Below, piece by piece: positions 577 through 54,198 of a stretch of DNA of 64,000 nucleotides. Source of the stretch: Lingula anatina (taxonomy: Eukaryota > Animalia > Brachiopoda); contig CM120646.1 of the NCBI GenBank assembly GCA_051362555.1, positions 24,212,142-24,276,141 of the forward strand, written 5' to 3'. A model generated the notes under the pieces. The model was not told the DNA's origin, did no database searches, and was given only the letters and a program-made list of their open reading frames with translations. The position numbers and the translations under genes were made by a program. Every line of letters starts with the position of its first letter. Positions within the stretch are counted from its first letter, which is position 1.

Positions 577-1013
577 TTATCCAGTCTCCTCAGTAGCTGC
601 GTCTGCTGGTGTTTCTTCTGTTGGTTGCTGTTCTGCTGCTGTTTCTTCTGCTGGTTGTTGTTCTGCTGGTTGTTCTTCTGCTGGTGCTACATCTGCTGGA
701 GGTTGTTCTTCTGTAGCTTTTTCACCCTCCTCAGCAGCTGTCTCTGATGTTTTCTTTGTGGCAACTTCTTTTCTTGCCTGCATGCCACGGAATCCAGCTT
801 GAATTTTAGTTGCAGCTTTTCCGACCTCTGGGTCATTTAAGTCAATGTCAATTTCTTCTTCTTCCTCTGGCTTCTTCTCACCTTCAGCAGGTTTCTCACC
901 CTCTGTTGGACCTTCACCTTGACCTTCACCCTGACCTTCACCTTCAGTGGTCTGGGAAGTATCTGGTTCAGACTCTTTCTTCATGGCAGCAACCTCTTTT
1001 CTGGCCTTAAGTC
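577..1013 (-). CDS. SPA17: SPA17-like last coding exon (IQ plus E/A/P/Q-rich tail)
   Basis: GLKARKEV...IDIDLNDPEVGKAATKIQAGFRGMQARKEV...EETG*; acceptor ttttag|. Confidence 0.9.
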
Positions 1014-6440: not shown

Positions 6441-6492
<52 letters not shown>

Positions 6493-9400: not shown

Positions 9401-12400
9401 AACACAATATGCACAAGTCTGTGAAGAATGCTTAACAACCATAAGATACCACTTTTGTGTTAACTGAACAGTGCACAGTGCTTATAGTAACCCAAATAGC
9501 AACCTTACCCTGCAGACAAAAATATTCTTAGAACCATGTGTGCAATGACATTCCAATATTTGGGTGTACAATTAAGACTTCAAATTGGATCATTTAAATC
9601 AATAAAAATGTTGGTAAGCTGATATTAATTTTAAACCACAGATTACAGGTTATCTGTAGTCAATCATGTAATTCCCACCTAACAATAGTCTGCTTAATGT
9701 ATCTCAGTAGGTGTAAAAACAAACCTTCATATGCCGGACATCTCTTCTGGCCTTCATTCCCCTAAAGCCTGCTTCTATTTTTGTAGCTGCTTCTGTTTCT
9801 ACTTCCTGTGATTATATCAAATCAGATAAGAGAACAGTATATATTTAAATAAAGAGGCTTTAGGTTGTGCCTCTGTATTTAATTAAGGCTTTCTTCTGAT
9901 ATATTTATACTTGGAATTTCACTCAAATCTCCTGAAAGTTTTATATGTAACATTAGTCAAATTTTCACACCTTTTTATGTTTGATTTCTTCTCTGGCTTT
10001 CATACCACGATAAGCTGCTTCAATTTTTGTGGCTGCTTCTGTCTCTACCATCTGTGATTGCAAACAGTAAATATCTTTTGCATCAAAACCTTTGTCTTCT
10101 ACTCACACAAAAAGTGGGTTAAAATTCTTGAAAAATGACAGTTTCTACCATTTAACTCTTATATTACAGTAGACTCTCTTTTTACTTTCTACTTATAAAT
10201 AAAATTATTTTGTATAATTTCTGTTGTATTTTAAAATCCTTCTGTGTTTGAATTATTTTCTTGCCTTCATACAAAGATACCCAGTATTTATTGTTATATA
10301 TAGTTCCTGCATCTGACTATTTTATAGTGAGTGATGGAAAGTAAATGTAATCTCATTCATTATAAAGGATATTGGTGAAAATAAATGACAGAACCTATCA
10401 GTGAAGAAATCTAAAAAGATAAGTATTTGTATCTCTTACTTTTCAGAATTTAATACAACCTTTCATAATGTGCACAAGAAGACTGTTACAAATAAACTCA
10501 AATTCATTTTTTTTCTAACCTTTTTATGCTTAACTTCTTTTCTGGCATGCATTCCACGGAATGCTGCTTCAATTTTAATGGCAGCTTCTGTTTCTACTTC
10601 CTATGATGACAAACAAGATATTAGAGACTGACTACACAGAATCATTCAAGTAGTTTATCAGTAAACCAAAATATCATTCTTTGCATCAATACTTTTTTTT
10701 TCTTTAAAATCTCAATCTTAATCCTATCTCATTTATTTCAAACATGCCCCAAGTATTAGACAGTTTCTCAAACCTTCTTTAGTTTAACTTCTTTTCTGGC
10801 ATGCATTCCACGGAATGCTGCTTCAATTTTAGTGGCAGCTTCTGTTTCTACTTCCTAGAATAACAGACTTATGCAATGAGAGACAGAATAGTTAGAATCA
10901 TTCAGGAAATTTATAACTTATCCAAAATATCCTTTTTTTGCATCAATATATAATTCTTTCATAAATGCTTTTTTCTTTAAGACCTAAATCCTATTTCTTT
11001 TATTTCAAACATGCCTCATGTATAAGACAGTTTCTCAAACCTTCTTTAGTTTAACTTCTTTTCTGGCATGCATTCCACGGAATGCTGCTTCAATTTTAAT
11101 GGCAGCTTCTGTTTCTACTTCCTATGATGACAAACAAGATATTAGATACTGACTACACAGAATCATTCAAGTAGTTTATCAGTAAACCAAAATATCATTC
11201 TTTGCATCAATACTTTTTTTTTCTTTAAAATCTCAATCTTAATCCTATCTCATTTATTTCAAACATGCCCCAAGTATTAGACAGTTTCTCAAACCTTCTT
11301 TAGTTTAACTTCTTTTCTGGCATGCATTCCACGGAATGCTGCTTCAATTTTAGTGGCAGCTTCTGTTTCTACTTCCTAGAATAACAGACTTATGCAATGA
11401 GAGACAGAATAGTTAGAATCATTCAGGAAATTTATCACTTAACCAAAATATCCTTTTTTTTTGCATCAATATATAATTTTTTTGTAAATGCTTTTTTCTT
11501 TAAGAGCTAAATCCTATATCATCAATTTCAAATGTAGCAGAAGTTTTAGAGAGCTTCTCAAACCTTCTTATGTTTGACTTCTTTTCTGGCTTTCATACCA
11601 CGAAAACCTGCCTCAATTTTTGTTGCAGCTTCTGTTTTAACAGCCTGGGATAATAAAAGGTGTTTCATATATTTATCAAGTTCATGCTAGTTAAATCAGT
11701 GGAATTTAGATTTGATTGCCATAATAAGGCAAAGGAAAATAGATTTAAAGACTACCATGTAAAAAATAATATATTAAAGTATTTTTTACTTGCTACTATA
11801 TAAGTTAATCTTCTTAATAAAAATACAAATTGAAAGTAAATCTTGAATAATGAGTGATGGAATATTTTGTGGATGTTTTCATTACAAGTAACTGTTACAT
11901 TGACAAGGTGCATATACCTGTTCATTTAACATGCAGTTGCATCTCATAACATTTAAAATACCAAGTCACACTGACTGAAAATACATTGTAGTTAATTAAT
12001 TACCAGTATCAGAATTAATCTTGTTATATTGTCATACCAAGATGACCTTTCAGCAAGTCTTTATCAATAACATAACTTGTTTTATTGGCTCTTTATTATT
12101 TTTCTATGTATCAAAATGATCCATATAAAATCTCAATGTCATTTGCAAACCATCCGCATGCTTACACTGTGATGTCATTCTAAAACTTATCATTTCAAAT
12201 TTAGGCATACTTCAATTAAACTCACAACCAAGCCATAAACAAATCTTAATACCATGCTCAAGACATGGAAAATTCATCCACCAAAGGCCATTCAGTTTAA
12301 AGCTTTTTCCACTCATTATGTTCCAATATACACCTAAAGCAATAGGGATTTTGGTGAAAGGTACCAAAACAAAACATATTGACAACGAACTGTAATGCAT

Positions 12401-15400
12401 TAAGTTCATGATCTCAAACAAAACTGACTGCTTTTGATTTACAGAATAAATGGCATGCAAACTGTATTCCATAAATAATATTCCAGGAAAAAAAAGATGT
12501 AATATTTTTCTAAAATTGAGCTAAAAAATGCATTATCCTCTCTTAATTTTCTCAAAAATCTGTGTCAGATATTTCATGGTATTTATGAGAAAATTGGAAA
12601 AATTTCAGATAAATTAACTTTGTTTCTTTGCTTTGTGTTTCACCACCAAAACCCTTTTAAGCATAATATCTTTTGCATACATGCATATGTAAGATGGTTG
12701 TTCAACCATGTTTTCCAAAGTTCTAGTTCAAATAACTGCAAAGACAAAGAGAAAATTATATCAAAATGCAAAACAACATTCTAAAACACCTAAAGGCATA
12801 AGTAGTTGAAATATTGCAGACTTTTTTCTATCCAAAACCCTTCATATTTCAACATGCCAATCAATGGATATGTGCCACTGAAAAAGCCTCATTACTGTAA
12901 CATCTGACCTTCAAGACCTTGACTCGTCTTCGTGTTTTCATACCCCTAAAACCTGCCTGAATCTTGACTGCTGCAGACCTACGAACCTATGGTGACAGAA
13001 GCAAATAGTATACAGAATAGCTTAAAGCCTAAAAGAGAAAAACAAAAGAATAAAAAAGAAAAAAAATAGTACAAGACATCAAGAGACAGCTAGCTAGTAC
13101 ATCTGTAAAATGCAACTTTTAAGGGAATCAAAAAAGTTTCAAGGTTGAAAATAGCCAAAAAAAAAAGAAAAAAAAAAGTAATGATATATCTTTCATATTA
13201 AGTCTAAACAGTGAACTCATGCAAATTGTATCTCCCAAACCTTGAGAGCTTGGACTTTATGGCGGGCCCTCATGCCCCGAAAGCCTGCTTGGATTTTAAC
13301 TGCTGCTGCAGTCTGAGCCTGACAAATACAATAGCACGTAAGGTCACAGTGACTGTTACTGCTGCAGTCTGAGCCTGACAAATACAACAGCACATAAGGT
13401 CACAGTGACTGTTACTGCTGCAGTCTGAGCCTGACAAATACAACAGCACATAAGGTCACAGTGACTGTTACTGCTGCAGTCTGAGCCTGACAAATACAAC
13501 AGCACATAAGGTCACAGTGACTGTTACTGCTGCAGTCTGAGCCTGACAAATACAACAGCACATAAGGTCACAGTTACTGTTACTGCTGCAGTCTGAGCCT
13601 GACAAATACAATAACACGTAAGGTCACAGTGACTGTTAATGTTGATGCAAAACTAAAATCTGCATTTTTAATATCACAGAGAATTGGTATAATGATGTAA
13701 ATCCACAAGTCATGGTGTTCTATATTCTTTGATAATTGATTTGAATTAATCAACTAGGATTCTATGTATATACCACCAACAGAAACTCATCACTAAGTTC
13801 TTTTTGATTGTACACTTGATTTGTTCATTTTATAAAAAGTCAGAGACAACCTGTTCACTGTTGTGAGTGAAATTGGTACCTATCAATGAATATCATTGAA
13901 AATTTAATTTCCTTCAATTCATTGACATTTTAGACAAATGTACTGTACACAGATTTTTCACATTACTTATGACAAGTAAAATCAGTTAAAATTGAAACTG
14001 ATCTGCCCATGCATATCAACATCCATAAATGCCTTCACTGAAATGTAAATAATGCAGGAAACTAAACTTACATCTGAAATATTCAAGAAGTGAGCAAATA
14101 GTTGTCAACTCCCAAAACCTAGTACCAATGTGTTAGTAGTGGCTCATTCAAAATTATTGCATCCATGTATCTAAGACCGCATTCACAACGAGTTGAGCCA
14201 TGGCTCTACAAATCCACGAACTAAATATGGCGGACGTACATGAAAGAAAAAATGCCTAATCTTTTAATAGTCTCTCCGCCTCTCACGCGCCTCCCCATGT
14301 GTCGTCCCTGCGGGGGTACAGTCATTAAATCTCTGCTCCATTGGGATGACACATGGGGAGGCGTGTGAGAGGCAGAGAGACTATGAAAAGATTAGGCGGT
14401 TTTTCTTTCATGTACGTCCGCCATATTTAGATCGTGGATTTGTAGAACCATGGCTTAACTCGTTGTACATGTAAATGCAGTCTAACTGTTAGTGAAAAAA
14501 ATGGGTTGGCATAAGGGCACAGGAAGGACATCAAGACAGAAGATAATCCCACTTCAAAATCACATATCTCCAGTCAAGACAGAAGACATCCCACTTCAAA
14601 ATCACAAACCTTAACAGCCTTCACATTTTTGCGTGCTTTCATGCCCTTAAAGCCAGCCTGGATTTTAGTTGCCGCTTTCTCTACTTCTGGGTCATTAAGA
14701 TCTATATCTATCTCCTCCTCTTCCTCCTCTACAGTGGCAGAAGCAGGCTCCTGTGAGGGTGCCATGTTAGCGTCATCATGTGCTGACTGGTTGGAAAAAG
14801 CAGAAGCAAAACAATACTAAACAATGCAAAGCTATTGGTTAATATAATAATAGTGCACTATCATCTGGATGGTGACATGCTTACAGTGAAAACTTGGAGA
14901 TGATTAACTAAATATATGCAATAATATTATGCAAACAACAACAAAATTTCAAGTCATGTTAATGTGCAATTTGTGCAAAATAAAAAAAAAACAGCATACA
15001 TTTTCATGATTTAGACAAAGCCATGCAAAAACAATCAAACAAATGATTAAAATTTTGCAGTAGCTCACAATGTATTTATATACAAATCAAGCATTTAACA
15101 TAAGAACACGTGTCTGCTTAATTGCATTCCACTTACACTAAAAATGTAAACATTTTACAAAAACAAAGTTTATATAACAATAATAATAACAGAACAAACT
15201 TTGAAAACAAGAAATTTCTTAGCTTAGTTGAATTGTGGATGCTGACAAACTCAGAATAAGTGACAATGGGTAAACCAGTGAACTGATATCATTACAACAA
15301 TCAATTGTTAAAGCGGTAAATAGATTGACAGAAAAATTGCAAAGTACCAAAACTTAAAAGAATGAAAATAAAATTTGTGGAAAAAATATTAAAAGTCTAT

Positions 15401-17633
15401 ATAATAGTGAAGAAAAACAGAATGAAAAAAACATTCACAGAACAAGAACAGACTTAAACACACCAAAAATAACATATAAGGGGAACCAGGATAGAAAACT
15501 AGAGACATAGGGCCATCTACAGGAACAAGTCAAGAGAGAGAGAGCAGGCAGCCATGGTAAGAGGGTTGGTGAAGAAATGGTGACACTCATTGTGACAGGT
15601 GGTAACAATTAAAACAGATGAGACAAAAGACAGCAGCCACATATAACAGACAGAGCACTAGAAATTAAACATTCAGTTATATATTTGTAGATCCACATTG
15701 TTAACCACAGCCACATGAAATGTATAGAAAGAGCACTAGAAAACAATCACTTAAATATTTGTAGATCCACATTGTTAACAGCAGCCACATGAAACGTACA
15801 GACAGAGCACTAGAAAACACTATTTGCAGATTCACACTGTTAAAAAAGACTATGAAAGTTTCAGATCATTCACAAGACAGGAGATCTACATAAAGAAAAC
15901 ATAAAGAGTGGGTCTCTGGCTCAGAAGTCAAAAGAGAACTGGTATCTTACTGTTTTCATATCACTGACTTGCTTCCTTGCCTTCATCCCTTTAAACCCTG
16001 CCTGTAATTAACAGATTAGGGAGTATTATAAGTTAGAATTAACTTTACAAAATAATACAATATTCTACGTACTTGTACATGTGGCCACTACTTTCCAACA
16101 GTTTGTACATCACTGTGCCACACTGGTGTCAACATCAGTCTGTACAACTACTGTGCCACACTGGTATCAACATCAGTCTGTTCAACTACTGTGCCACACT
16201 GGTGTCAACATCAGTCTGTACAACTACTGTGCCACACTGGTGTCAACATCAGTCTGTACAACTACTGTGCCACATTGGTGTCAACAACAGTCTGTACGTC
16301 ACTGTGCCACACTGGTGTCAACATCAGTTTGTACGTCACTGTGCCACACTGGTGTCAACATCAGTCTGTACAACTACTGTGCCACACTGGTGTCAACATC
16401 AGTCTGTACGTCACTGCGCCACATTGGTGTCAACATCAGTCTGTACGTCACTGTGCCACACTGGTGTCAACATCAGTCTGTACAACTACTGTGCCACACT
16501 GGTGTCAACATCAGTCTGTACAACTACTGCGCCACATTGGTGTCAACATCAGTCTGTATGTCACTGCGCCACACTGGTGTCAACATCAGTCTGTACGTCA
16601 CTGCGCCACATTGGTGTCAACATCAGTCTGTACGTCACTGCGCCACATTGGTGTCAACATCAGTCTGTACGTCACTGTGCCACACTGGTGTCAACATCAG
16701 TCTGTACAACTACTGTGCCACACTGGTGTCAACATCAGTCTGTACAACTACTGCGCCACATTGGTGTCAACATCAGTCTGTATGTCACTGCGCCACACTG
16801 GTGTCAACATCAGTCTGTACGTCACTGCGCCACATTGGTGTCAACATCAGTCTGTACGTCACAGCAACACACTGGTTTCAACATCAGTCTGTACAACTAC
16901 TGTGCCACACTGGTGTCAACATCAGTCTGTACAACTACTGTGCCACACTGGTGTCAACATCAGTCTGTACAACTACTGTGCCACACTGGTGTCAACATCA
17001 GTCTGTACGTCACTGCGCCACATTGGTGTCAACATCAGAGGCACATGTCAAATTAACAACAGTGGGAGGTACTGATTGAACTATATCCAAAATATATGGA
17101 GCCAATTTGTAATGTTTTCCTGCCATCATATACCAGCATGTACCTGTCTTATTTTGGCTTTTTAAATAAATTACTTAAAAGTTTTCAACCTTTTTTTCTT
17201 TTCTTTTTCTTTCTTTTGATGAACAATAAAATTTAAAAAATTGCTACCCCTGACCTATGGGTTTATCTTATCTGGTACAGGCATCAATTGTCTTTCGAGG
17301 CCAGGGAATCAATGGCACCTTCATGTATTGGAGTAAAGCACTTTAGAAAAACGAAGGGAAGATCTGTGCAAAACTTTCTTTTACAAAATGACTGAATCCT
17401 CTGACAAATTGAATCACATCTTAATTGAGCATCCCAATCGTCTTTTAAGATCTAACAATAGATACAAAGTGCCAAAATTTAAGACAGACAGATTCCGATG
17501 CTCTTTTATTCCATATGCACTTTTAAATATCCAATAGTATTATGCTGTCTTTTATCCTAAGTACAATAATTTTAAAGTTCAGTTAGCAGTCTTTTAACTC
17601 AGTTTTATTCATGCAAATATTCATTTTATACTC

Positions 17634-17698
<65 letters not shown>

Positions 17699-20600
17699 AT
17701 TTTTTTAATTTTTTTTTTTTTAACATTCTGTGGACAACTTCAACCCACTGGGTTGCAATCTTAATAAATTATTATTATTATTTATTATTATTATTATTAT
17801 AAATTATTTCTCTCAGGGACACCACTTTATAAGAAAGCCAAAGATTACAAGATGTGGGAGTCTCTCTATGCAGTACCTAATACAATAGTCTACATATTCC
17901 ACAGCTTTATAAGAATTGTGGTTATAAATGAAATATAGTTTGTTTTCACAGAAACAATAAATGGTAAAAAATTACATTTACTATAAATTTCACCTGAAAT
18001 ACAAGCATTATTGTACTTGGTTTGAGAAATCCTCTTCTTTGAAATTTTCTTTCTTCTGATATTGATATGGAAAACATTTTCTACCTCGGAGAGAATAAAT
18101 TTGACCATTTCTACATCCATCTCTGGCTTACCTGTATTTTTGTTGCAGCTTTTTCCACCTCTGGGTCAGTGAGGTCAATGTCCACTTCCTCCTCTGCCTG
18201 GGGCGTGTCCTCGGCACTTGGGGCAGCACCTGCTTTGTTCTTCTTCCTGGCATCTCTGGCTTGCTTCTGTTTTTCATATTCTTCTGGGTCTCTGGAAAAT
18301 TCATAAAGAAGAAAATCTATTACCGACATGTCATTCTTTGCAAGGAAAATAAATCTTGTAACAATTAAGTACATGCCTATCTCCTTCATAACAATTATTT
18401 TGTTGAACTTTGGCAATATCATCCCCCTCTCCCTCTTCTTTATATTGCGATTCCACCTTCACTTACTAACCTTAACCTGGATATCATGCATCCATCACAA
18501 ATAATTTAGTTGGAAAAGTAAAGCAGACTATAAAACTATTTAATTATGTGGTGCCTTTATTTTTAATTATTAACACTTTGCCAAAATGGTACTAACAACT
18601 GGATACTTAGTTTTAAGTCATATAACAGGGAATTTTATAATATGAGAACAGCACTTAAAATAGGCATTTAGAACTGTATTTATAACATAATATGTAAACT
18701 GTATTTGTAACAGGCAAGTTTACAACAGTTTAACAGCATTTATAACAGGCAATTAAAATTATGTTAACAGCATTTATAACAGGCAATTATAATATATTTC
18801 AACAACATTTATAACAGGCAATTATATGTTAACAGCAGATGTTAGCTGCATCTACATGTATATCAGACAGATCATTCAACTTATAACTGGTATGAAAACT
18901 TTGCAGTGTGAAAACAAGGTAAATGTCTGCTGAAATATAAAAAGACTTAATTCCAAATATATTATATCAATTATAATAAAAAGCAAAATATATTATATCA
19001 ATTATGATAAGAAGCAAAATCATAATTAGGCCTCTAAAATAAAAAATAAAAACATTTTTGCTAAGATCAAGAGAAGGTACTTCATCAACTTTCAATAATA
19101 TTTAGAATGATTTTTTTTTTCATTTTTTCATGAACACGGACACAACTTTCGTCAACTACAAATCCTTTGAGTTTTCTTTATAGAATCATCAATGTTATGC
19201 CATAATTGCAGAATGGCCAAATGTGTCGTGTCACACTATGAAAAATACGGAATTATCAAAGTACTGACAAGCAATTCCACATGATAGGTGACAGCAGCCA
19301 CAGCCTTTAACACGGATACAGGTCTAAAAACAGTAAGCAGCAGATGATGGAAATGTGTATCTTCCTATGATTTAAGGTTTAGAGGGATCTCTATACACCA
19401 GCACTGAGGCATCTCACCGTTCCTCTCACAATCATTATCAGTGGTTAGCACATAGTGTTTTCAAAGTTCTCGATACAATCTGACCCGATGTGACTGAACT
19501 GTTCCTGACTTTGTCTACGTTAAAAAAAGTTGCTGTGAGAAAATAAACAGAAATGGAATAATAATAAAATCACCTTACCCATCTTGCTGTTCATCCTCTG
19601 AGCTATATAATGTCATGAAGCTAAATTTAACACAACTTCATTTCCTCATAACAAAACAACTTCATAAGAAATCATAGTTTGATCTGAGCTTTTTACACAC
19701 AGACATTCAAACAATTAAGATTCACACTGTTTATGAAGGGATCTAATTATCATTTCAGACAGCATAATACAATCCAGGTAATGTCTGTCTTCACAGTGTT
19801 TGCTGTTTTTTTCTACATGAATGTTATAACTTATACAGAGATAAATAAACACAACACAAATTAAGAGGCTTAATTCAAATTTACAAAAGCTCAAAGAAGA
19901 TGTTCCAAGTTCCTTTTACAGCACCAAACAGATGTCATTCAGAACAAGTTCACTAACAAGATCCATGGACTAAATATGGCTGTCTCACTTAAAAGTAATG
20001 ATGATTAATACCCTGATGTGTGTGTGTGTGTGTGTGTGTTCATGCAAACTTACTTCATCTTGAGCACTCTCTGTCTGCCCTGGAATCCCCGGTATCCTGA
20101 CTGGATCATGATGGCTGCCTGGTCTTCCCTCATCTCTTGCACCTCCTGTGTGGCAGCATGCTGACGATACTTGGTCTGAATCTTCACCGCAGCTTCTTGC
20201 TGCTGGGGGTCGCCACTGTCTATGTCAGGTTTCTGCAGACATAGAAATTTAGAAGAGTGAAAACCATAGGCTTATCCATTCAACTCAACCTTTCACTGAA
20301 AGTGTTGGAACAGGTATGAATGTTAAAATATAGTAGTAGTAGGGCCTTGCAGATTTTACAGTAATTCTGCAGGTCTCAGTGATACTAAGTGAAGAACTGT
20401 TTCATGCAGATGTTTTAAGAATATCTGCACTGTCTGTAACACAAGAAGTAAAACAAAGGCAGTTCCTCCTTTGCCCAACCTCTTTCCAACTATATGCCAC
20501 TAAATCACTCACAAAGGTGGATCCCCTCATTTCTTCTGATACCTTTTCCTTTTCTTGCAGACACGGGTGACTATAAACCCCCACATACAGTACATGCATA

Positions 20601-23600
20601 CACATACACATTACCTTGAAAGCTTTGTTGTTATAGAACCTGTCTTCAAGCTTGGCACCATGCTCGACAGGGTCAATGCCTTCCTCTGGAATAGAACATA
20701 TAGCAAAGTTTTATATAAAATATGAATCTACATGGTCAATGCCTTCCTCTGAAAAAGAACATATAGCAAAGTTTTATACCACGCTTCAACATCATGTCAA
20801 TGTAGACACTCTCCATTATACCACACTTCAACATCATGTCAATGTAGACACTCTATTATACCACACTTCAACATCATGTCAATGTAGACACTCCATTATA
20901 CCACACTTCAACATCATGTCAATGTAGACACTCTCCATTATACCACACTTCAACATCATGTCAATGTAGACACTCCATTATACCACACTTCAACATCATG
21001 TCAATGTAGACACTCTCCATTATACCACACTTCAACATCATGTCAATGTAGACACTCTCCATTATACCACACTTCAACATCATGTCAATGTAGACACTCC
21101 ATTATACCACACTTCAACATCATGTCAATGTAGACACTCTCCATTATACCACACTTCAACACCATGTCAATGAAGACACTCCATTATACCACACTTCAAC
21201 ATCATGTCAATGTAGACACTCTCCATTATACCACACTTCAACATCATGTCAATGTAGACATTCCATTATACCACACTTCAACATCATGTCAATGTAGACA
21301 CTCTCCATTATACCACACTTCAACATCATGTCAATGTAGACATTCCATTATACCACACTTCAACATCATGTCAATGTAGACACTCCATTATACCACACTT
21401 CAACATCATGTCAATGTAGACACTCTCCATTATACCACACTTCAACATCATGTCAATGTAGACACTCTATTATACCACACTTCAACATCATGTCAATGTA
21501 GACACTCTCCATTACACCACACTTCAACATCATGTCAATGTAGACACTCTCCATTACACCACACTTCAACATCATGTCAATGTAGACACTCCATTATACC
21601 ACACTTCAACAACATTTCAATGTAGACACACCCTCTTTTATACCACACTTAGCACCATGTCAATGTAGACACTCTCCATTATACCACACTTCAACATCAT
21701 GTCAATGTAGACACTCTATTATACCACACTTCAACATCATGTCAATGTAGACACTCCATTATACCACACTTCAACATCATGTCAATGTAGACACTCTCAA
21801 TTATACTACACTTCAACATCATGTCAATGTAGACACTCTATTATACCACACTTCAACATCATGTCAATGTAGACACACTCTCTTTTATACCACACTTAGC
21901 ACCATGTCAATGTAGACACTCTCCATTATACCACACTTCAACATCATGTCAATGTAGACACTCTATTATACCACACTTCAACATCATGTCAATGTAGACA
22001 CTCCATTATACCACACTTCAACATCATGTCAATGTAGACACTCTCCATTATACCACACTTCAACATCATGTCAATGTAGACACTCTATTATACCACACTT
22101 CAACATCATGTCAATGTAGACACTCCATTATACCACACTTCAACATCATGCCAATGTAGACACTCTCCATTATACCACACTTCAACATCATGTCAATGTA
22201 GACACTCTCCATTACACCACACTTCAACATCATGTCAATGTAGACATTCCATTATACCACACTTCAATATCATGTCAATGTAGACACTCTATTATACCAC
22301 ACTTCAACATCATGTCAATGTAGACACTCTCCATTATACCACACTTCAACATCATGTCAATGTAGACACTCTATTATACCACACTTCAACATCATGTCAA
22401 TGTAGACACTCTCTATTATACCACACTTAGCACCATGTCAAGAGGATCAACACAGCACTATTAGCTTTTCTCATTCTGATCATTACTCTCTTAGACTGCA
22501 TTCCCACAAATTTTTAGATTGTTCTATCCCCCTGGGGAGTCTCACTAGATTGGTGTCAGCTTAACCAGCTTAAATGTCTATCTCGCCTACTAAAAGCTGT
22601 AAGGGGGTAATTAACTATAGTGCACGCTCGGCTGACAGCAATTTAGCATGAACCCCCAGGGAGTTAGGTCAATATAGATAGATAGATCTAAATCTGTGGG
22701 AATGCAGTTTTTATCACCAAAGCTTTTCTTCTATTTTGTAAATGGAGTCAACAACATAAAACCAGGCTCTGTTCACTGTATATATAGGGCATGGGAAAAG
22801 TAAGTCAAGTTTAACAAAATTTTTTTAAAAAACACTAGTAACAAGTAAGTAAATATCTTAGCTGTCAAGGCAGTTAAAATTTGTTTATCACCCACTTAAT
22901 GGTAAAAAATATCTGTGTCCTAGATAGTAAAAGTTTTGATCAAGAACACATGTATTACCAAAAATGCTGAAGCAAAATGGTCAAAATAGACTATGAAAAT
23001 GTGTGTGTAGATTTATTGCCAGACGTACAGAAGGTTTGCAAATGAAACTGATGTTTGAAAACAGCTTTAAAATGTTTCTAGCCTTTTCTATAAGTGCTCA
23101 AACAGCCAAGTCCATGCCAGTTAATTAAAAGCTATAAATACACTCCAATCAGAGTCTGTGGTGTGACATTATTCCCTAGGCAGACTTAGGAATATGTATG
23201 TATGCAGCTAGTTTGGTGTAGAAGAAAAGTGTCTATTAACACTTATATTAATAGACTTATACCTGGGTCTCAAGAGGTCCAAAGGCCAACAGCAAAGACT
23301 ACAACTTACCTTTTATAGCCATTTTAAAACATTAATTATATATATAGATTTATGCTTGTAACAAAGTTAAATAGCACTGCTATGGAAAGTTAAAACCTTT
23401 AGGAGTTCACAGGTACCAAAAATGGATCCTTGCCTCTGGATAGAAGTACAATTTAAGGTGCATCTTATTGTACTAATTTTGGTTGATCAATCCAGCTAAT
23501 TTATACTTGATATGATATTTACATGCAGTTGCAGTGAGCATAACTTGCAATAATTCTGGTAATGGAGGTGAATTAAGTCAGGTGTAGTACCTGGCAATAA

Positions 23601-23868: not shown

Positions 23869-26800
23869 ATTTGCTATGGACCCTCCTGGCTACATTAACA
23901 TTTCATCACTGGACCCACCTCCATTTAAAAAGATAGGAGCTCCTTCCTCCTCCTCCATCCCCTGCCTTTCCTCCTCAGGCCCAGAGTCATCATATTCTGA
24001 GCTAGAGTCCTTATGGACCCTCTCAGATAAAAACTGTTTCAACTTTTTCTCCTGCCAAGCTTGTTTTAGCTCCTGTTTAAATTCCGTGACATCTTCCGTC
24101 CAGTCCTCCAGGTCTTGCTTTACATGGTCCAGTTTGTTCCCCATCACTGACTTATGTGACACTCTTAAGGAATTGACTTTTTAAAAGTTATTGAATTAAT
24201 ACCAGAGCCTCTTCTGGCTACATGGAGTCTCCAACCTGTGCACCTTCAAGATAAACTAGTAATATGCTTTCCTGAAATTTTACTAGCAAGCCTGTGTTCA
24301 CATAGACATCCTTCTTTTCACCATTCACTGTGAATCATAAGCCTTAACACTGATATACTATCCACCTTCAATATGTGTGCATAGTGGTGTCACTTAATTA
24401 TCAGTAGACATCACAGAAAAATTATAAGATATCCTGAATATGTGGTCTCCTTGCAATGAACTGAAATACTTTCTGTAAATTTTCCAAACTTCATCTACAT
24501 GTATGTTAAAGGCCAAAGTATCTATCCCACAGAGTCTGTATCAATTGTGACATATACAACAGTACATGGATAACAACCTGAAGATATATTCAACTGTGAC
24601 AGCTATGTAACATGACTATAGATCTTTAAGATGCTGGGTACTATTCAATAGCAACAGAGTCACTGTATTCCAGTGGTTAGTCAAGAGGAGTGGGATACAA
24701 CTCCAAAAGAGAGCAACTGGTACAATTCCCTGCCATAAAATTCCAATATTAAGAATATTAGAATTCAAACAGCTCTGCTTTTTAGTTTTTTATCAAGTTT
24801 ATTGTCCAAAGATGGCCAGCCATATGTTATGATATATGTATAGTGACAGCAGGAATGAGATCCCAGGGTCTGAAATGTCTTTCCTATGTACTTTAACAGA
24901 CAGCTCCACACGTGTGTGTCTTCCCCACGAAGTCAGTGTTCCTAGGAGAGCTGGTATCACACAATTATGTCAACCTTACAATGTGGGGGTGTTTCAATGT
25001 CCAAACTGATACCAGAACACCTCTGAAAAATTTGTCAGGGAGAAGTGGAAGTCAGATCCTAAGCTTGTTTTAGTCCCACTGGCTGTAAAGATGGTGTTTA
25101 CCTTTCAGACTCTGCTTCTCCTCCTCCTACCTGCTCAGTACTCTTTGCCCAGTTGTGAGGAGGCCAATTCTACCAGCTGTATCAGACTCTGCTTCTTCTC
25201 CTCCTACCTGCTCAGTACTCTATGCCCAGCAGCTGTGAGGAGGCCAATTCTACCAGCCGTATCAGACCAGAAGTCATGTGGGACAAAGCCTTCTCTGCTA
25301 GCACCTCACGCTCCAATACTACCAACACAGAGAGATCAATACAATACCATGCCAATGGCCACCAATCAATTCCTGAACAAACTTCCAACAGGGCTCTAGT
25401 ATTCTTGTTTTTATTTAGTAAATTACATTCTGTCACCACAAGACAAGTATCACCTGATATCTGTACAGTAAACAATGGGATGTCTCTGGGCTCTGTAAGA
25501 CTACTGGGATTTGCAGCTCTCTCTAAGCTCCAAAGAAGTCATCATTGGAGACTACTGTACTGTGTGGTTTATATAGCAACACTGACACAGATCTATACCT
25601 TTCTATAGCAGTATCAATACAGACAAAATACAGCTCAGTGTAAGAAAACACTGGGGAAAAAACACTTAAGCAGTAGTAATGTTCAACTCAATAACAAAGT
25701 TGGTGAAGGACAAAGCTCAAGGACTTGATACCTGGCCAGTTGGAGGTGGGGGGGGGGGGGGGGTTGCTCTTGCCCTGTTCCTTCATGCTTAGCACTAACA
25801 CACTGCTGTCTATTTAGAAGTACTAGTAAATGGTTCTTTGAACTTTCAATGAGGTTTTCTGTTCAAGTTTCTGCTGTTGATTGCACTGCTGGGGAAGAAG
25901 TCAAGAGCAGGAAATACTTGGCTGCAAGGTAATCTACAGGAAACACACCTGACTGTAGCTTTTATGTTATTGAACAGCACAGCAGTTTGCCATCTAAACC
26001 TTCATGTATGGCAGTTACTTTTGTAAACAAATGTCAAGTTGATTAGAAGCTCTAGTAAATAGTGGCATTCTTGATCTTTTCCTAGAGTGCCATCTATTTT
26101 TGTAAAGATCTGGAGGAGACTAAGTTGGCTTCATAAAATGTAAACAGGAATCAATTACATGAACTTCTGCAGACAAATCATTATTCATTTCCATCTTCAT
26201 AAAGTTTTCAATATTTTGTTTTCAGGTATCACAAGTAAAGAATCAGAAAAAAGGGAAAAAAGTAACAGGTACATTTGGTACTCTGATAAACAACAGAATA
26301 AATTATTATTATATAATACTAAAGGGGCTAAATCTCCCAAAAACATCTTAATTGTAGGCAATAACTCTATTTCTATTAAAAGAATGCATTTAAAAAAAAT
26401 CCAAAATATACTTAGAAACGTTTAATCTTCAATGGTGAACAAAGTATGTCCATGGACAAATATTATGTTGTAAACTTGAATACTCTGACTGATGGAAGCA
26501 CCAAAACAATGGTGAACAAAGTATGTCCATGGACAAATATTATGTTGTAAACTTAAATACTCTGACTGATAGAAGCACCAAAACAATTCGTGACCTGCAC
26601 AGCAAGAGATTAAATTACTATTGAACTGGGGTCAATTATTGATGTGCTGCCAGCCATCTTTCCATTCAATAATACCCACCATCCGTGACTAGGAGCTTCT
26701 AAATAATTAATCTATTTGGAGAACTACAATTCAATGAAAACTTGGCATGTAAACACAGTATGGAGTGCTCAAGAATGAGTTTATTTTCTGCCTCCAGCAT

Positions 26801-34710: not shown

Positions 34711-37700
34711 GAGTCTTCGACTGGGTTCTCACACATTTAGATCGATCCATCTGGATCAACCCAATTCCCTGGGGGTTCACGCTAAATTGCCGTCAGCTTC
34801 CGAGAGTCAAAGGTGCACAAAAGTTAATTACCCCCTTATAGCTTTAGTAGGTGGGACAGACATTTAAGCCGGTCAGGCTGAGAACAATCTAGTGAGACTC
34901 CCTAGGGGGACAGATCGATTTAAATATCTGTGGGAATGGTCTCTTGGAAACCAATGCCTTTGTATTGTGGATTTCACATACCCTTAATCAACAGAACTAT
35001 CTTTGAGGTCAGAGCAGGATTGGGAAAAAAAACCCAAGAAAATCTTTGTAATTTTGGTTTAGCCTTCTCTATTTGGCTTCACATTATGTTTCAATGAAGA
35101 GTGGATAAAGAATGAATTTATAAATAATTGAGATATAAATTAATATAATCAATACATTACAGGATGACAGACACATTGGTGTTATCATCTTAGCTCTTGT
35201 CCAAATTAACAAAATTATTTAACACAAAAGTGCCCATAAAACATGCATTAGTCTACACAGACCTGTACAATGGTCCATAAAAATGACATCACCCAAATGA
35301 GACCTGTGAAATAGTCTATCAATTATTAAGAGTAAAGACAGCAGGCCTGTCTGAAATGGTCTTACTCAAAGTGATTTCTCTAATAATACCTGTGAAATGG
35401 CCAACAGAACACGTTTTGCAAAGGAAACTTGTCTTAAATGATCCATTACAGAGAAACAAGGCTGAGCAGAGCTGTGCCACAATTCATGGTTTAATACTAC
35501 TTGTAAACCTTTGTCAATGACACTTACTAGCTATTCTATGGTTTGTTCACAAGAGGATGGGGGTGAAGAGAAAGTAAAGGGGAGTGCGTGCCTTTCCCCT
35601 TTATAACCATACAGCACACCTAACTTACCTGACATATCCCTTTTATCTTGTAATACCTCACTGACTTGGCCACTTTCATCTGGTTGCCTCCCAGTCTCCA
35701 CACTTTCATTGATATCAGTGACATTCTCATAGTCTGACCAAACAGTGTCTCTTTGTGAAGGCAAACAAACCAACATAGAATTGGGCAGGCGAACCATCTT
35801 GCATGGTGTGAACTGATCATCTCCTTCACAATTACTAGCATGACCTGGGGATAACTCAGATGATCCCTGAGAGAAAACAGTGACTCTGTTTGAGGCACCA
35901 TCATCACCACTATCACCATCCTCTTCCACTGACTGAATAAACTGCCCCCTGCCTGCCTGGCCCCTGTCAATGGGAGACAAACCAAGAAGTCCACAGTCAG
36001 ATTGCTGGTCACCTTTAGCTTGCAGTTCCCTTACAGGGGTACAGGGCTCTCGTCCTCTTAACTTGGAGTTTTGTACCACAACCGTTTTACTACTATTACT
36101 ACCATTTCTTTTCAACTCATTGCCAGTGTGGATATTTGCAGGCATTTTTGTAGAGATAGCACCATGTTCTGCACCACTTATTTGGTCAGGTTCCCTTGCG
36201 GCTGAATTTTCTAGCACCCCTGTACTAGTACCTCTGGCACTGCTGGCTGCACAACCCATGACCAGGCTACTGCTGATGATACATTCACCAGGATGGTCTG
36301 ATACTGTCTTTATAATTTTCTGTAACTCAATAACAAAGAAGTAGAAGTGTGTTTGAGTCTTTGAAATCTGCTGGCTACTGGCTCTCTAGGACAAACATAA
36401 GTCTCTGAGATCTGCTGGCTACTGGGTCTCTATGACAAACATAAGTCTCTGAGATCTGCTAGCTACTGGCTCTCTATGACAAACATAAGTCTCTGAGATC
36501 TGCTGGCTACTGGGTCTCTAGGACAAACATAAGTCTCTGAGATCTGCTGGCTACTGGCTCTCTATGACAAACATAAGTCTCAGAAATCTGCTGGCTACTG
36601 GGTCTCTATGACAAACATAAGTCTCTGAGATCTGCTGGCTACTGGGTCTCTATGACAAACATAAGTCTCTGAGATCTGCTAGCTACTGGCTCTCTATGAC
36701 AAACATAAGTCTCTGAGATCTGCTAGCTACTGGGTCTCTAGGACAAACATAAGTCTCTGAGATCTGCTGGCTACTGGGTCTCTAGGACAAACATAAGTCT
36801 CTGAGATCTGCTAGCTACTGGGTCTCTATGACAAACATAAGTCTCTGAGATCTGCTGGCTACTGGGTCTCTAGGCCAAACATAAGTCTCTGAGATCTGCT
36901 GGCTACTGGGTCTCTATGACAAACATAAGGCGTCTGGAATCTATATGCCTTCCATATCAAGTGAGAGAATTAATTACAGTGACAAGCATCATCAGTGTTC
37001 AGTAGACACAGAAAATGTACACCAATGGTGGTGGTTAGCTGCTCTAACTTGCTTGCTTTCAATGATAAATTAAAGCTGAAGAACTCCAACTGTATGCAAA
37101 GACAAATCGAAGTCTCCTTGGAAATCTTATTTGCTTCAGTGATGAAAGAACATATTAATACTAGTGACCTTCATAACCATACATGATATGTGGGCCATAT
37201 TACAAGTGAGTGTTAAGTATGGTATTATTTCTAAATACAGCCTATGATTAAAGTCTCACGCTGGTAAGAAGTGAAGACACCCCAGGAAATCCTTCTTATC
37301 ACAGAACTACTTTACTGTGAGTATTATGTAAGATTCCAATAAACCCTGTCACAGCATCATGTTAATATAACAGCAATATTTCCAACTGTTCTATAACAAA
37401 TCTTATAGACAGCTCCAATAGCTAGAACTGTTATATAACAATTCTCATAGTCAGTTCCCAGTCAGGGTATTGCTTTTCACCTTGGACATTGCATGAAGTG
37501 AAAACCATTGTTCCTGATAATTCAAACTTCATATCTGAAAGACAAACTAATTAACTTGTCATTTAAAAGTCACAGCCTCTATGATACATCCTATGTGATA
37601 AATAAAGTTCTGCAAAAAATAATTAATAATAAATAAATAAAAATAATCCAACAGAGACTGTATTTTCAACTTTTCCAGCACAACCATCTGAAAAAGTAGA

Positions 37701-38315: not shown

Positions 38316-40395
38316 GTTATTCATTTGTTACGGATAACTTGACATAATAATGGATGCGGATGTTCTAGTGCACATGTGCACAGTAACAAGAAGAATAGGG
38401 AAACCTCAAACTATGGCACAGAGTGTAGAAATACAAGTTAAAAGCTTATAAGAGGTGTGGGGGAAAGAGGCCCATCACAAAGCCTTAATACAATAGAAAA
38501 GGGCAATGAGCAACATCTAGAAGCCAATGATACCAGCTGGCAGTTTTATGTAGCAATGGTTAAACAGAGAGCAAATCTAAACTTATACCTGAAGTTTAAA
38601 TTTGAATTAGTAATTTTGGATGGTAGCATACATATATAGTAGGACATTTAAGTTAATCCTGAAGGCCTATAAGAATTGTCATATAACAGTTCTTTAAAAC
38701 TAAGTTTCAATAATCAGACTAAATCTTTTCAAAATTAAAAATTTTGTAAACAGACTGAATTTCAAAACATGTTTGGCAATAAATAAATAAATAAATAAAT
38801 ATATAAATAAATGAATAGAATTACAAATTATTAGCGCTTAGAATAAAAAGGTCTCAGTGTTTAGTATATACAACAAGATCACAAATACAGAATATTTATC
38901 ATTCTAGCTCTCCCTGTCCAGACATATAAACGTTATGTTAATGACTCAATCTCTGCAATGGGGAAAATTTTGAAATTTATAGATACTGTACTACTTTCAG
39001 AAATAAAATTTTAAAAGTGAAACATACCTATTGAGGGATAGCAAAAATTGAAAAGTATTTTGCTATTCAATGCAGTGAAAGCACCATAATGCCATATAGA
39101 AAAAATATAATCCTTGATTCCAAAATTATGTATCTGAAAGATTGTTACAGTAATTGTCTGTAGATTATTTCAGTGATGTATAATTAGGATAAGGTCAACA
39201 TACAGAGAATACAAAACCCAGTCAAAAATAACCCAGATGAATTGCTTCAGATGAGACCAACACAGAATCTTCCCATCACAATCAGATATATTACACACAT
39301 ATATGGTCACATAGTGGCTTATATCAATACCACAGAATCTTTCCATCACAATCAGATATATTACACATATACATGGTCACATAGTGGCTTATATCAATAC
39401 CACAGAATCTTCCCATCACAATCAGATATATTACACACATATACATGGTCACATAGTGGCTTATATCAATACCACAGAATCTTCCCATCACAATCAGATA
39501 TATTACACACATATATGGTCACATAGTGGCTTATATCAATACCACAGAATCTTCCCATCACAATCAGATATATTACACACATATACATGGTCACATAGTG
39601 GCTTATATCAATACCACAGAATCTTACCATCACAATCAGATATATTACACACATATATGGTCACATAGTGGCTTATATCAATACCACAGAATCTTCCCAT
39701 CACAATCAGATATATTACACACACACACACACACACACATATATAAACCACCCCATCTCCTTGAAAATCAACATGGAACAAAAGCAAGAGACAAATAAAT
39801 ATACAAATTTATATTTTTTTCACTTTACTGATTATGACAAGAAATGAAGACCTGTGCATTTTGGCAGCCTTGTAATGTTTTACAAGGTTTAGTAAGGTGA
39901 TTTGGTTGATAAACTTAAAACAGTTTTACAAGGTTTAGTAAGGTGAATTGGCAATTTATTTTACAAAGATCTTTTGAACCCTAAAAAAATCTTTCTTGCC
40001 AAACTGATAAAACAATCTGATATCACCTCATATCACCTCGTATATTTGTCAGCAATAAGGATAAGAGGTGTCAGCACAATGCATTTACAGGGTTATCAAG
40101 AGGCAACACTTAACAATAAACTCAGTGCCAAGTTTTGTAAATGAAAAATGGGAAGTCAAAGGATTTCCTGTGTCTTTATTTAGATAACTATAAACACTGT
40201 ATAACAAACAATCTGTACAATGTCAAAATCAATCAACATACCTTCCCGTATCTTCATCAACTCTTCAAAATATTTGGCGCCAAATAAGTGGATGTCTTCT
40301 GGTTGGTTACGCAGAACCTCTCGTGCAAGGCCTTCCAATAGATTCTGGAACCCACGAGGAACACGCAGCTTGGTGTTGGAAAAGGGGACAGCCAT
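577..40395 (-). CDS. SPA17: SPA17/Sp17-like protein: RIIa D/D domain plus ~20 IQ motifs (spliced gene model, ~879 aa if all exons are included)
   Basis: Exons: 40395-40242, 20685-20615, 20232-20054, 18291-18132, 16001-15951, 14786-14610, 13318-13241, 12986-12909, 11644-11564, 11375-11295, 11121-11041, 10854-10774, 10600-10520, 10051-9971, 9805-9725, 9028-8948, 7917-7837, 7462-7382, 5849-5763, 4042-3899, 1396-1183, 1013-577. All introns are GT-AG with matching phases; total 2640 nt, open to TAA at 579-577. The N-terminus MAVPFSNTKLRVPRGFQNLLEGLAREVLRNQP...DPVEHGAKLEDRFYNNKAF is the Sp17 signature. Confidence 0.88.
1183..1396 (-). CDS. SPA17: SPA17-like penultimate exon
   Basis: GFKARKEVEAKKSEAG...EEEIDIDLEDPEVEKAATKIQAGFK; G|GTAGTT, phase 1. 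Confidence 0.86.
1522..2087. repeat. Minisatellite, 15-bp unit arranged as 30-bp dimers
   Basis: (ataaactatggtgctgtagactacggtgcc)n. Confidence 0.95.
2250..3889. repeat. Tandem repeat, ~101-bp unit, ~16 copies, abutting the donor at 3898
   Basis: gacagtagtgacagcagtagtgtagataacagag... recurs every ~101 bp. Confidence 0.95.
3899..4042 (-). CDS. SPA17: SPA17-like exon (acidic DIDL plus first half of IQ)
   Basis: EEKAEAAATEALKEPEPAAKTEEKEEIDIDLNDPEVEKAATKIQAGFK; ctag| ... AAG|GTGGGA. Confidence 0.86.
4052..4621. repeat. Tandem repeat, 57-bp unit, ~10 copies, abutting the acceptor at 4043
   Basis: tgatgatatctatgtctcagaatacatgatatgagttgtatggagaggtgtaaatat. Confidence 0.95.
4984..5063. repeat. (ATATA)n pentanucleotide microsatellite
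   Basis: Read directly from the sequence. Confidence 0.95.
5763..5849 (-). CDS. SPA17: Single-IQ exon M (87 nt)
   Basis: ETKEAAACKIQAGFRGMRDRKRVKEIKSG; donor |GTAAGA. Confidence 0.8.
7382..7462 (-). CDS. SPA17: Single-IQ cassette exon L (81 nt)
   Basis: AAESHAATKIQAGFRGMHARQKVKVIK. Confidence 0.8.
7837..7917 (-). CDS. SPA17: Single-IQ(IE) cassette exon K (81 nt)
   Basis: EVESKAATKIEAGFRGMKARKEVKKMK. Confidence 0.8.
8495..8943. repeat. Tandem repeat, 64-bp unit, 7 copies, abutting the donor of exon J
   Basis: tatttaataacccaggaccacactgggtgagctaagtcccatgctatcaatgtgtcaggtgaga. Confidence 0.95.
8948..9028 (-). CDS. SPA17: Single-IQ cassette exon J (81 nt)
   Basis: EREVEAATKIQAGFRGMHVRHQVQVMK. 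Confidence 0.8.
9725..9805 (-). CDS. SPA17: Single-IQ(IE) cassette exon I (81 nt)
   Basis: EVETEAATKIEAGFRGMKARRDVRHMK. Confidence 0.8.
9971..10051 (-). CDS. SPA17: Single-IQ(IE) cassette exon H (81 nt)
   Basis: MVETEAATKIEAAYRGMKAREEIKHKK. Confidence 0.8.
10239..10316 (-). pseudogene. Decayed IQ pseudo-exon
   Basis: The minus strand reads ...INTGYLCMKARK*FKHR. It has an in-frame TAA and AAG|GA where the sibling exons have AAG|GT. It lies at roughly the array spacing between exons G and H. Confidence 0.6.
10520..10600 (-). CDS. SPA17: Single-IQ(IE) cassette exon G (81 nt)
   Basis: EVETEAAIKIEAAFRGMHARKEVKHKK. Confidence 0.78.
10774..10854 (-). CDS. SPA17: Single-IQ(IE) cassette exon F (81 nt)
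   Basis: EVETEAATKIEAAFRGMHARKEVKLKK. Confidence 0.78.
11041..11121 (-). CDS. SPA17: Single-IQ(IE) cassette exon E (81 nt)
   Basis: EVETEAAIKIEAAFRGMHARKEVKLKK. Confidence 0.78.
11295..11375 (-). CDS. SPA17: Single-IQ(IE) cassette exon D (81 nt)
   Basis: EVETEAATKIEAAFRGMHARKEVKLKK. Confidence 0.78.
11564..11644 (-). CDS. SPA17: Single-IQ(IE) cassette exon C (81 nt)
   Basis: AVKTEAATKIEAGFRGMKARKEVKHKK. Confidence 0.8.
12909..12986 (-). CDS. SPA17: Single-IQ cassette exon B (78 nt)
   Basis: VRRSAAVKIQAGFRGMKTRRRVKVLK; phase 0/0. Confidence 0.8.
13241..13318 (-). CDS. SPA17: Single-IQ cassette exon A (78 nt)
   Basis: AQTAAAVKIQAGFRGMRARHKVQALK; phase 0/0. Confidence 0.8.
13304..13637. repeat. 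Tandem repeat, 56-bp unit, 6 copies, each containing the exon A acceptor
   Basis: tgctgcagtctgagcctgacaaatacaacagcacataaggtcacagtgactgttac. Confidence 0.95.
14175..14482. mobile_element. Palindromic MITE (family 1), TAA target-site duplication
   Basis: Inverted arms of ~135 bp (GACCGCATTCACAACGAG... / ...CTCGTTG..AATGCAGTC) around a short spacer, flanked by TAA. Confidence 0.85.
14610..14786 (-). CDS. SPA17: SPA17-like exon (acidic DIDL plus IQ)
   Basis: SAHDDANMAPSQEP...EEIDIDLNDPEVEKAATKIQAGFKGMKARKNVKAVK; ccag| ... AAG|GTTTGT. Confidence 0.85.
15951..16001 (-). CDS. SPA17: SPA17-like exon (second half of the IQ motif)
   Basis: AGFKGMKARKQVSDMKT; tacag| ... |GTAAGA. Confidence 0.87.
16099..17037. 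repeat. Minisatellite, ~35-37-bp variant units
   Basis: actgtgccacactggtgtcaacatcagtctgtac(aact/gtc). Confidence 0.95.
18132..18291 (-). CDS. SPA17: SPA17-like exon (acidic DIDL segment, first half of an IQ motif)
   Basis: DPEEYEKQKQARDARKKNK...EEVDIDLTDPEVEKAATKIQ; ttttccag| ... CAG|GTAAGC. Confidence 0.88.
20054..20232 (-). CDS. SPA17: SPA17-like exon with two IQ motifs
   Basis: KPDIDSGDPQQQEAAVKIQTKYRQHAATQEVQEMREDQAAIMIQSGYRGFQGRQRVLKM; ctgcag| ... AA|GTAAGT. Confidence 0.88.
20615..20685 (-). CDS. SPA17: SPA17-like exon (EEGIDPVEHGAKLEDRFYNNKAFK)
   Basis: 71 nt, tccag|...AAG|GTAATG; contains the conserved Sp17 EDRFYNN motif. Confidence 0.9.
20772..22440. repeat. Minisatellite, ~39-41-bp unit, ~40 copies
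   Basis: ttataccacacttcaacatcatgtcaatgtagacact(ct)cca. Confidence 0.95.
22494..22709 (+). mobile_element. MITE (family 2)
   Basis: TIRs GACTGCATTCCCACA / TGTGGGAATGCAGT, preceded by TTA. Related copies at ~34719 and ~46418. Confidence 0.75.
23919..24144 (-). CDS. Putative second alternative first coding exon (MGNKLDHVKQDLEDW..., 75 aa, helical then acidic)
   Basis: ATG at 24144. Donor GAG|GTGGGT after 226 nt is phase 1 and compatible with exon 20685. Composition is protein-like. Possible acceptor tttcag| at 24271. Confidence 0.55.
28420..32700. promoter_or_regulatory. CpG-retaining intronic domain, candidate internal promoter or enhancer
   Basis: Visibly more CG dinucleotides than the flanks. 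Motifs: TATAAAA 32042-32048, YY1-like CAAGATGGCG 32051-32060, CACGTG 32061-32066, octamer ATTTGCAT 32560-32567, GGGCGGG 32581-32587, TGACGTC 32590-32596. Confidence 0.4.
32772..33758. repeat. Minisatellite, 56-bp unit
   Basis: aatactgttatctccattgtgttggaatcaatccctgattgtggcagttgaacctc. Confidence 0.95.
33763..34398. repeat. Minisatellite, 66-bp unit, directly joined to the previous array
   Basis: attatattcacctccaaccaactctctattaccatggaaatactagtagctaggctgaccaagtttataggt-like unit; the ORF track shows a constant-period peptide repeat. Confidence 0.9.
34719..34941 (-). mobile_element. MITE family 2, inverted and diverged copy
   Basis: Reverse-complement similarity to 22494-22709 (gttaattacccccttatagct, ctagtgagactccc, atctgtgggaatg). 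Confidence 0.7.
35629..36259 (-). CDS. Putative alternative first coding exon of the SPA17-like gene (MGCAASS..., 210 aa low-complexity region, myristoylation/palmitoylation-type N-terminus)
   Basis: Long non-repetitive ORF. Strong donor CAG|GTAAGT after 631 nt is phase 1, matching the acceptor at 20685. Polypyrimidine acceptor ...gttacag| at 36319. Confidence 0.7.
36366..36928. repeat. Minisatellite, 44-bp unit, ~13 copies, just upstream of the MGC exon acceptor
   Basis: gagatctgctggctactgggtctctatgacaaacataagtctct. Confidence 0.95.
39260..39742. repeat. Minisatellite, ~69-73-bp unit
   Basis: cacagaatcttcccatcacaatcagatatattacacacatata..tggtcacatagtggcttatatcaatac. Confidence 0.93.
40242..40395 (-). 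CDS. SPA17: SPA17-like first coding exon, RIIa dimerisation/docking domain
   Basis: MAVPFSNTKLRVPRGFQNLLEGLAREVLRNQPEDIHLFGAKYFEELMKIRE; 154 nt; donor G|GTATGT (phase 1). An acceptor ttttcag|G at 40453 implies an upstream non-coding exon. Confidence 0.92.
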
Positions 40396-40539
40396 CTTGT
40401 TTGTTTTGAGCAAATTTTCTACGGAAGTTTAACAGAGATAATGGATCTTGTTCCTGAAAAATAAATATAAACTAATCATATTTCTTGTTAACAAATGTCT
40501 AACATTAAAGCAAAAATAACTCTTCCTTTGAGAATCAAA

Positions 40540-54082: not shown

Positions 54083-54167
54083 TAAGGGTTTAGGGTTTAG
54101 GGGTTAGGGTTAGGGGTTAGGGTTAGGGTTAGGGTTAGGGTTAGGGTTAGGGTTAGGGTTAGGGTTA

Positions 54168-54198
<31 letters not shown>

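Follow-up and report, generated by a model that had tools for sequence, protein, structure and literature searches.

A candidate acylated first coding exon, predicted to take the place of the RIIa docking domain in Sp17 of Lingula anatina, and the same replacement in orthologue isoform models

The Sp17 gene of the brachiopod Lingula anatina appears to have alternative beginnings. In the intron that follows its RIIa docking-domain exon lies a candidate alternative first coding exon (here the MGC exon, 35629..36319, minus strand), and the explanation we favor, with a probability of about 0.72, is that this exon is used, that its product is acylated, and that it replaces the RIIa domain. All coordinates refer to the window, that is, the whole stretch of 64,000 nt that was analyzed. 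Sp17 is usually regarded as a docking protein of cilia and the sperm tail, and the family is characterized by AKAP binding and a ciliary or sperm-tail location. Replacement of the docking domain is likely to be a real, widespread, and unrecognized variant of Sp17, isoforms of which exist in automated annotations of other animals. Judged from these models, comparative support is strong for the swap mechanism, not for the sequence of the MGC exon.

By sequence, the host gene is a long multi-IQ invertebrate Sp17, with an RIIa exon, a conserved flank exon, and IQ-like repeats. The RIIa (D/D) coding exon (40242..40453, minus strand) has its acceptor at 40453, an ATG at 40395, and a phase-1 donor (AAG/GTATGT); the coding part, 154 nt from 40395 to 40242, keeps its reading frame when spliced to exon 2 at 20685. 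It matches Pfam RIIa (E 4.8e-14), and SPA17 structures are the top three matches among solved relatives, zebrafish SPA17 being the best (7my4, E 3.8e-20). The RIIa form thus has the N-terminal RIIa D/D domain of SPA17/Sp17, which the MGC form would not. The shared exon 2 (20615..20685, minus strand, phase-1 acceptor, read depth 12-29) encodes the conserved flank that in SPA17/Sp17 comes after the D/D helices and reaches about residue 75; it is 61-71% identical to orthologue residues 52-75 in five of the seven tested. The first 135 residues of the RIIa form are about 70% identical to the oyster protein and 67% to that of the annelid Owenia, about 70% being the best identity among the closest relatives compared. 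The exon-2 acceptor has a duplicated decoy 63 nt upstream (20730..20770, minus strand), from which the exon would start at 20748; no read depth was seen at 20741-20773 in four runs.

Exon 3 (20054..20232, minus strand; read depth up to 30) carries two IQ motifs (Pfam IQ, E 2.2e-07). It is followed by a possible 24-nt in-frame micro-exon (19579..19602, minus strand), which leaves the frame intact whether included or not and had no reads in four runs, and by predicted downstream exons (577..18291, minus strand) with 18 further IQ-like repeats, eight of them with IE for IQ and several in tandemly duplicated cassette-like exons. The repeats, 20 in total, extend down to position 816. Pfam IQ matches exon 3 and two of the downstream exons, so that the IQ motif of SPA17/Sp17 is present here as well, but SPA17/Sp17 has one such motif, vs. 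20 IQ-like repeats and D/D-removing starts in the host gene. Eight short IE-type exons at 7831-11680 (minus strand) are recently duplicated, and may have altered calmodulin binding and optional cassette use. A protein word search with exon 3, a short query for which the method reaches weakly, gave eight candidates and no match. The window ends in about 1650 TTAGGG copies (54085-64000), so that the Sp17 gene start looks to be about 14 kb from an apparent telomere. Exon-like frames at 44487-44762 and 49929-50276 (plus strand) mark an opposite-strand gene, head to head with Sp17; the frame at 44487-44762 has no Pfam match, and presumably recalls ZNHIT2.

The MGC exon frame runs on the minus strand from an ATG at 36259 to 35629 (631 nt, or 210 codons plus one base), and begins MGCAASS. 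It closes at a consensus phase-1 donor (CAG/GTAAGT), the same phase as the RIIa donor and the acceptor at 20685; in these respects the initial annotation of this stretch, which had picked out the frame within the intron after the RIIa exon, is confirmed. Joined to exon 2, the exon keeps the frame. Its use as an in-frame cassette after the RIIa exon is excluded, as had been claimed: the RIIa exon spliced to 36319 reads ENYKDSIRPSW and then meets TGA, after 11 codons. At its head the exon has an acceptor (TTACAG/36319) with a pyrimidine-rich tract, followed by a 60-nt leader and a start codon in strong context (G at both -3 and +4); within the leader is an upstream frame of 5 codons (36267..36284, minus strand) with a weak-context ATG at 36284. 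Because of this acceptor and leader, the exon is probably the first coding exon behind a putative non-coding exon, rather than the first exon of the transcript, and the earlier description of it as a “start exon” should be narrowed accordingly. The donor scores 8.9 bits on a generic matrix, vs. 5.4 bits for that of the RIIa exon, and GC content is 46%, vs. 37% for the intron. Ser, Gly, Asp, and Glu are abundant in the encoded sequence, which appears disordered and contains no Pfam family.

An open frame of this kind is far beyond chance. When the non-repeat part of the intron (15,129 bases) was dinucleotide-shuffled 200 times, no frame of at least 210 codons arose (the longest was 178); none of 2000 shuffles of the exon itself remained open; and an ATG frame of 210 codons closing at a phase-1 donor was found in 0 of 500 shuffles, with thresholds chosen after the data had been seen. 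Within the window the exon is the sole case of an ATG-Gly-Cys start on the minus strand, and no second copy of it was found.

RNA evidence comes from nine raw-read runs with the same species label and without tissue labels, seven of which were aligned to window regions, using about 6 in 100 of the reads for X1-X5 and 25 in 100 for X7-X8. The region of the shared acceptor (19030-20773) was covered with X1, X3, X5, and X8. In all four, 20685 is joined to the RIIa exon, by 55 junction reads (12, 7, 12, and 24, respectively), and exon 2 to exon 3 (20615 to 20232): the RIIa form, plain Sp17, is the main spliced form in these runs. None of the four has a row for a junction from 35629 to 20685, rows requiring 3 reads; a read joined to the MGC exon would make a separate loose-end row, one base further on. 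At the shared loose-end row the reads of three runs agree fully (1.0) and those of X8 to 0.96, leaving room for at most about one read joined to the second Met-Gly candidate described below.

Reads on the MGC exon itself were sought in X1, X2, X4, and X7 (region 34720-36355), X1 being the one among these that was also aligned at the shared acceptor, where the host gene is expressed; there were no sense reads in any of the four. The lone X1 read pair that falls on the exon does not count in its favor: X1 is stranded, with first mates on the plus strand for reads of the gene and on the minus strand for this pair, which, being oriented opposite to the mRNA, is therefore antisense or DNA. With an exon-2 depth of 23.6 and a mean read length of about 142 in X1, some 115 reads would be expected on the MGC exon were it used by all transcripts, so the absence of sense reads limits the MGC form to at most roughly 3% of X1 transcripts (hand arithmetic). 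All four runs also have partial reads, originating elsewhere, on a dispersed repeat with inverted ends at 34720-34994, which is probably a small mobile element.

The comparative evidence comes from automated gene models. In 11 of 11 mollusc isoform pairs, from 10 species, the two forms split at RIIa residue 52/53 and are then identical to the end, the alternative form having the RIIa domain replaced by a Met-Gly start at the junction used in the host gene. A search with the RIIa exon matched 204 proteins; ten match clusters, taken with no selection for starts, gave five mollusc Met-Gly isoforms and two amphioxus isoforms (MGSC and MCGC), and ten further clusters gave no Met-Gly swaps. In amphioxus both forms join downstream of the mollusc junction, at residue 88. 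Seven Met-Gly starts came from an unbiased search, made with the whole Owenia orthologue. A third set of cluster members and a junction profile yielded additional cases; the profile, being built from Met-Gly starts, is biased toward finding them. Among 230 fetched proteins with the exon-2 motif, a count that includes redundant entries per species, RIIa precedes the motif in 187. The other 43 comprise 24 Met-Gly starts, 18 apparent contig-level calls from an intron (judged from their ends and sources), and one Elysia model; the regular expression behind this count missed Pomacea X5, likewise Met-Gly.

These starts fall into two classes. The basic class, found in bivalves and gastropods, is short and has Gly2 and Ser6, with 4-6 Lys/Arg among its first 20 residues. 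The Cys-bearing class is found in Biomphalaria, Bulinus, the annelid Dimorphilus, and three further models (P0212, P0206, and P0322); in the last two, from two further animals, long Met-Gly-Cys starts of 165 residues (P0206) and 130 residues (P0322) are joined to exon 2. Biomphalaria has RIIa, Cys-type, and basic-type starts, and in one Bulinus model a long Cys-type start is followed by a basic-type start and then by exon 2, which is also how the two Met-Gly candidates are ordered in Lingula. The mollusc, annelid, and amphioxus models (e.g., XP_078326470, XP_071095771, XP_055866562, and XP_055866570) are like the host gene in that a Met-Gly start supplants RIIa, outside amphioxus at the same junction, and in the Cys and basic classes; they are filed under unrelated names such as titin-like, triadin-like, and ASPM homolog. 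Most mollusc alternative starts are 20-60 residues long, vs. the 210 codons of the MGC exon.

The MGC exon fits the Cys class by anatomy, not by sequence. Its body has no match (blastp) among 393 fetched proteins, none of them from a close relative, and no significant similarity to eleven alternative starts. A possible motif common to it and to P0322 and P0206 was dropped as not significant (199 and 50 of 300 shuffles, respectively, reach the score), and internal “MG..S” matches in Mytilus and Lineus are not starts but MGN words within a Pex19-like tail. The N-terminal swap proposed in the initial annotation stands in part: the same swap is present in the 11 mollusc pairs, while the junction reads, the sense reads, and a match to the exon sequence are each lacking in the material described.

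Some models also have an unusual other end. Mussel, scallop, nemertean, and hemichordate Sp17 models (P0063, P0064, P0088, P0013, and others) have a tail ending in a CaaX-like CTIL or CSIL, and the Mytilus tail scores as Pex19 (E 5.6e-17); P0129, P0135, and P0195 have both a Met-Gly start and a CaaX-like end. By its sequence, such an end would be a second, C-terminal lipid anchor at the Sp17 locus. Four abalone and Solemya models (P0145, P0192, P0193, and P0198) have the start GGKLS, as in the myristoylated calmodulin-binding start of BASP1 (PMC7494789), a likeness that may be due to convergence or chance.

A second candidate alternative first coding exon, overlooked by the initial annotation, lies at 23919..24144 (minus strand). 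It has 75 codons, starting MGNKLDH, and a phase-1 donor (GAG/GTGGGT); if unspliced, the frame continues until it meets a stop at 23890. The intron contains 14 Met-Gly starts, and outside repeats two of them, this one and the MGC exon, end at phase-1 donors; 0 of 500 shuffles reach two such frames (mean 0.018), thresholds again being post hoc. A third, at 39700, was set aside, as it lies inside a 70-bp tandem repeat and has a weak donor. The MGNKL frame is the weaker candidate: 54 of 2000 shuffles of it remain open, Asp at position 6 is a poor fit to myristoylation, and there is no good acceptor upstream, the phase-1 AG sites there being weak, with pyrimidine tracts of 0.45 vs. 0.60-0.80. Its first residues are nearer than those of the MGC exon to the basic-type mollusc starts, a weak likeness (1-2 of 300 shuffles reach the score) that is partly circular. 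A tblastn search of the intron with short mollusc starts found no separate short basic-type exon; the best relevant matches were to the MGNKL frame itself (E 1.6 and 11). As in Biomphalaria, three starts are probably interchangeable at this locus: RIIa, Cys-type, and a second Met-Gly.

How else might the MGC exon be explained? It may be real but silent or decaying, the relic of an ancestral swap in a lineage that does not use the MGC start or uses only the MGNKL one. This would account for the lack of sense reads and junctions across the seven of nine runs aligned, and for the lack of sequence conservation among the fetched proteins, but decay would erode the 210-codon frame, donor, acceptor, and start context, all of which are intact, and the runs, unlabeled as to tissue, were read to the extent of about 6 or 25 in 100; we consider it unlikely. 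That the frame is open by chance, within a patch of higher GC, or is the relic of a mobile element, is scarcely credible. Neither a Pfam family nor a homologue among the fetched proteins was found for the exon, and frames of 135-136 codons overlap it in other reading frames, but none of the 2000 composition-matched shuffles stays open, the exon is single-copy within the window, and start motif, donor, and phase agree with the pattern in orthologues.

Two other possibilities keep the exon functional in a different role. As a poison cassette, it would be included after the RIIa exon to stop translation after 11 codons, leading to decay or to a restart at the MGC ATG. It has the acceptor and the early TGA that this calls for, and transcripts lost to decay would seldom be met in RNA, which agrees with the reads; a 210-codon open frame with an acylation motif would be unnecessary for such a purpose, however, and orthologue models have clean swaps, making this quite improbable. 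We give an equally small chance to a nested gene on the same strand, opened by the MGC exon and confined to the intron, as would be the case were that exon spliced to the MGNKL frame with its stop at 23890. The weak phase-1 AG sites before that frame would allow this, and the join to 20685 was not seen, but the pyrimidine tracts of those acceptors are poor, and the Met-Gly-Cys starts of relatives join exon 2.

On the favored explanation, that of a used and acylated first coding exon, an upstream non-coding exon or a separate promoter would feed the MGC exon in an unsampled tissue or stage. Myristoylation favors a small residue at position 6, and Gly2, Cys3, and Ser6 are all present; as read from the sequence they fit a predicted dual acylation, in which Met would be removed, Gly2 myristoylated, and Cys3 palmitoylated. 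The roughly 200 Ser/Gly/Asp/Glu-rich residues that follow may serve as a fast-evolving disordered spacer. The product would have neither D/D-helix dimerization nor AKAP docking, and its up to 20 IQ-like repeats would hold calmodulin at the membrane: with RIIa replaced by an acylated start, the calmodulin-binding tail would sit there and not on an AKAP-type scaffold. Given the ciliary role of Sp17, the ciliary membrane is as plausible a destination as the neuronal one.

Gly2 and Cys3 lead to rapid membrane anchoring in Fyn (PMC2132482), and RP2 and calflagin are directed to the cilium or flagellum by a Gly2/Cys3 start (PMC6678300); these starts are like that of the MGC exon, whose acylation is predicted, but the proteins are not homologous to it. 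In sperm hexokinase HK1S, the N-terminus peculiar to the isoform is fatty-acylated, with a change of location (PMC4736023). Isoform-specific acylated starts being known in other proteins, the surprise here is limited; unlike that of HK1S, the Sp17 swap also removes a protein-docking domain, and so exchanges one targeting mode for another. The passages on SPA17 in a study of the R2D2 docking-domain family mention neither myristoylation nor invertebrates, describe no isoform whose start removes the D/D helices, and report that Sp17 homodimers bind AKAP18 weakly (9.6 uM), tight binding requiring ROPN1L (PMC8339350); the “AKAP-docked” Sp17 of the initial annotation is for this reason conditional. 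Sp17 domains are also treated in PMC11276731. No description of an acylated Sp17 isoform was found in the open-access literature searched.

Igloo is a further protein with a likeness to the host gene, and the initial annotation had compared the MGC form to neuromodulin and Igloo. As regards anatomy this holds: the calpacitins (GAP-43, neurogranin, PEP-19, and Igloo) are, like the host gene product, acidic and likely disordered, with IQ motifs. They differ in having a PKC serine within the IQ; GAP-43 and neurogranin are further characterized by neuron-specific expression and by binding calmodulin that is free of calcium. Since none of the 20 host-gene repeats has this serine, and nothing in the reads, which carry no tissue labels, points to neurons, the likeness to neuromodulin was overstated. 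The repeats of some relatives retain the serine. Of the sources consulted, one describes the PKC-site serine of the calpacitin IQ motif (PMC3589724), another names Igloo as a calpacitin (PMC9618489), teleost neurogranins are reported to carry Gly at the serine position (PMC9415131), and GAP-43 is described as palmitoylated at Cys3/4 and not myristoylated (PMC7494789).

It is possible, and we propose it tentatively, that ancestral animal Sp17 was a dual-output locus, giving a ciliary docking protein and, from acylated starts, membrane calmodulin buffers, and that its IQ-repeat tail was the source from which vertebrate neurogranin, and perhaps Igloo and PEP-19 too, split off. Met-Gly swaps are known from models in molluscs, an annelid, and amphioxus. 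Bowfin models named “neurogranin b” end in a neurogranin-type IQ block and also contain RIIa and the exon-2 motif, and 23 of 41 residues (56%) are identical between this C-terminal block and a host-gene repeat, which suggests that neurogranin may derive from an Sp17 tail; the match of a host-gene repeat to PEP-19 is weak (E 0.0028). We take human SPA17 and NRGN to be adjacent. Fish proteins variously named neurogranin b, neuromodulin, or Sp17 (P0220, P0259, P0221, and P0265) combine RIIa with neurogranin-type IQ blocks, an arrangement pointing to a common SPA17-NRGN locus. Zebrafish nrgnb has the alias spa17, and is reported as closer to neurogranin (PMC9415131).

Should the swap prove real, the Sp17 loci of invertebrates would yield membrane-anchored multi-IQ proteins in addition to the docking protein. 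It would be a conserved localization switch, hidden in public annotations under misleading names, and would provide concrete candidates among invertebrate proteins for a role like that of GAP-43 or neurogranin, as well as an origin of neurogranin that can be tested.
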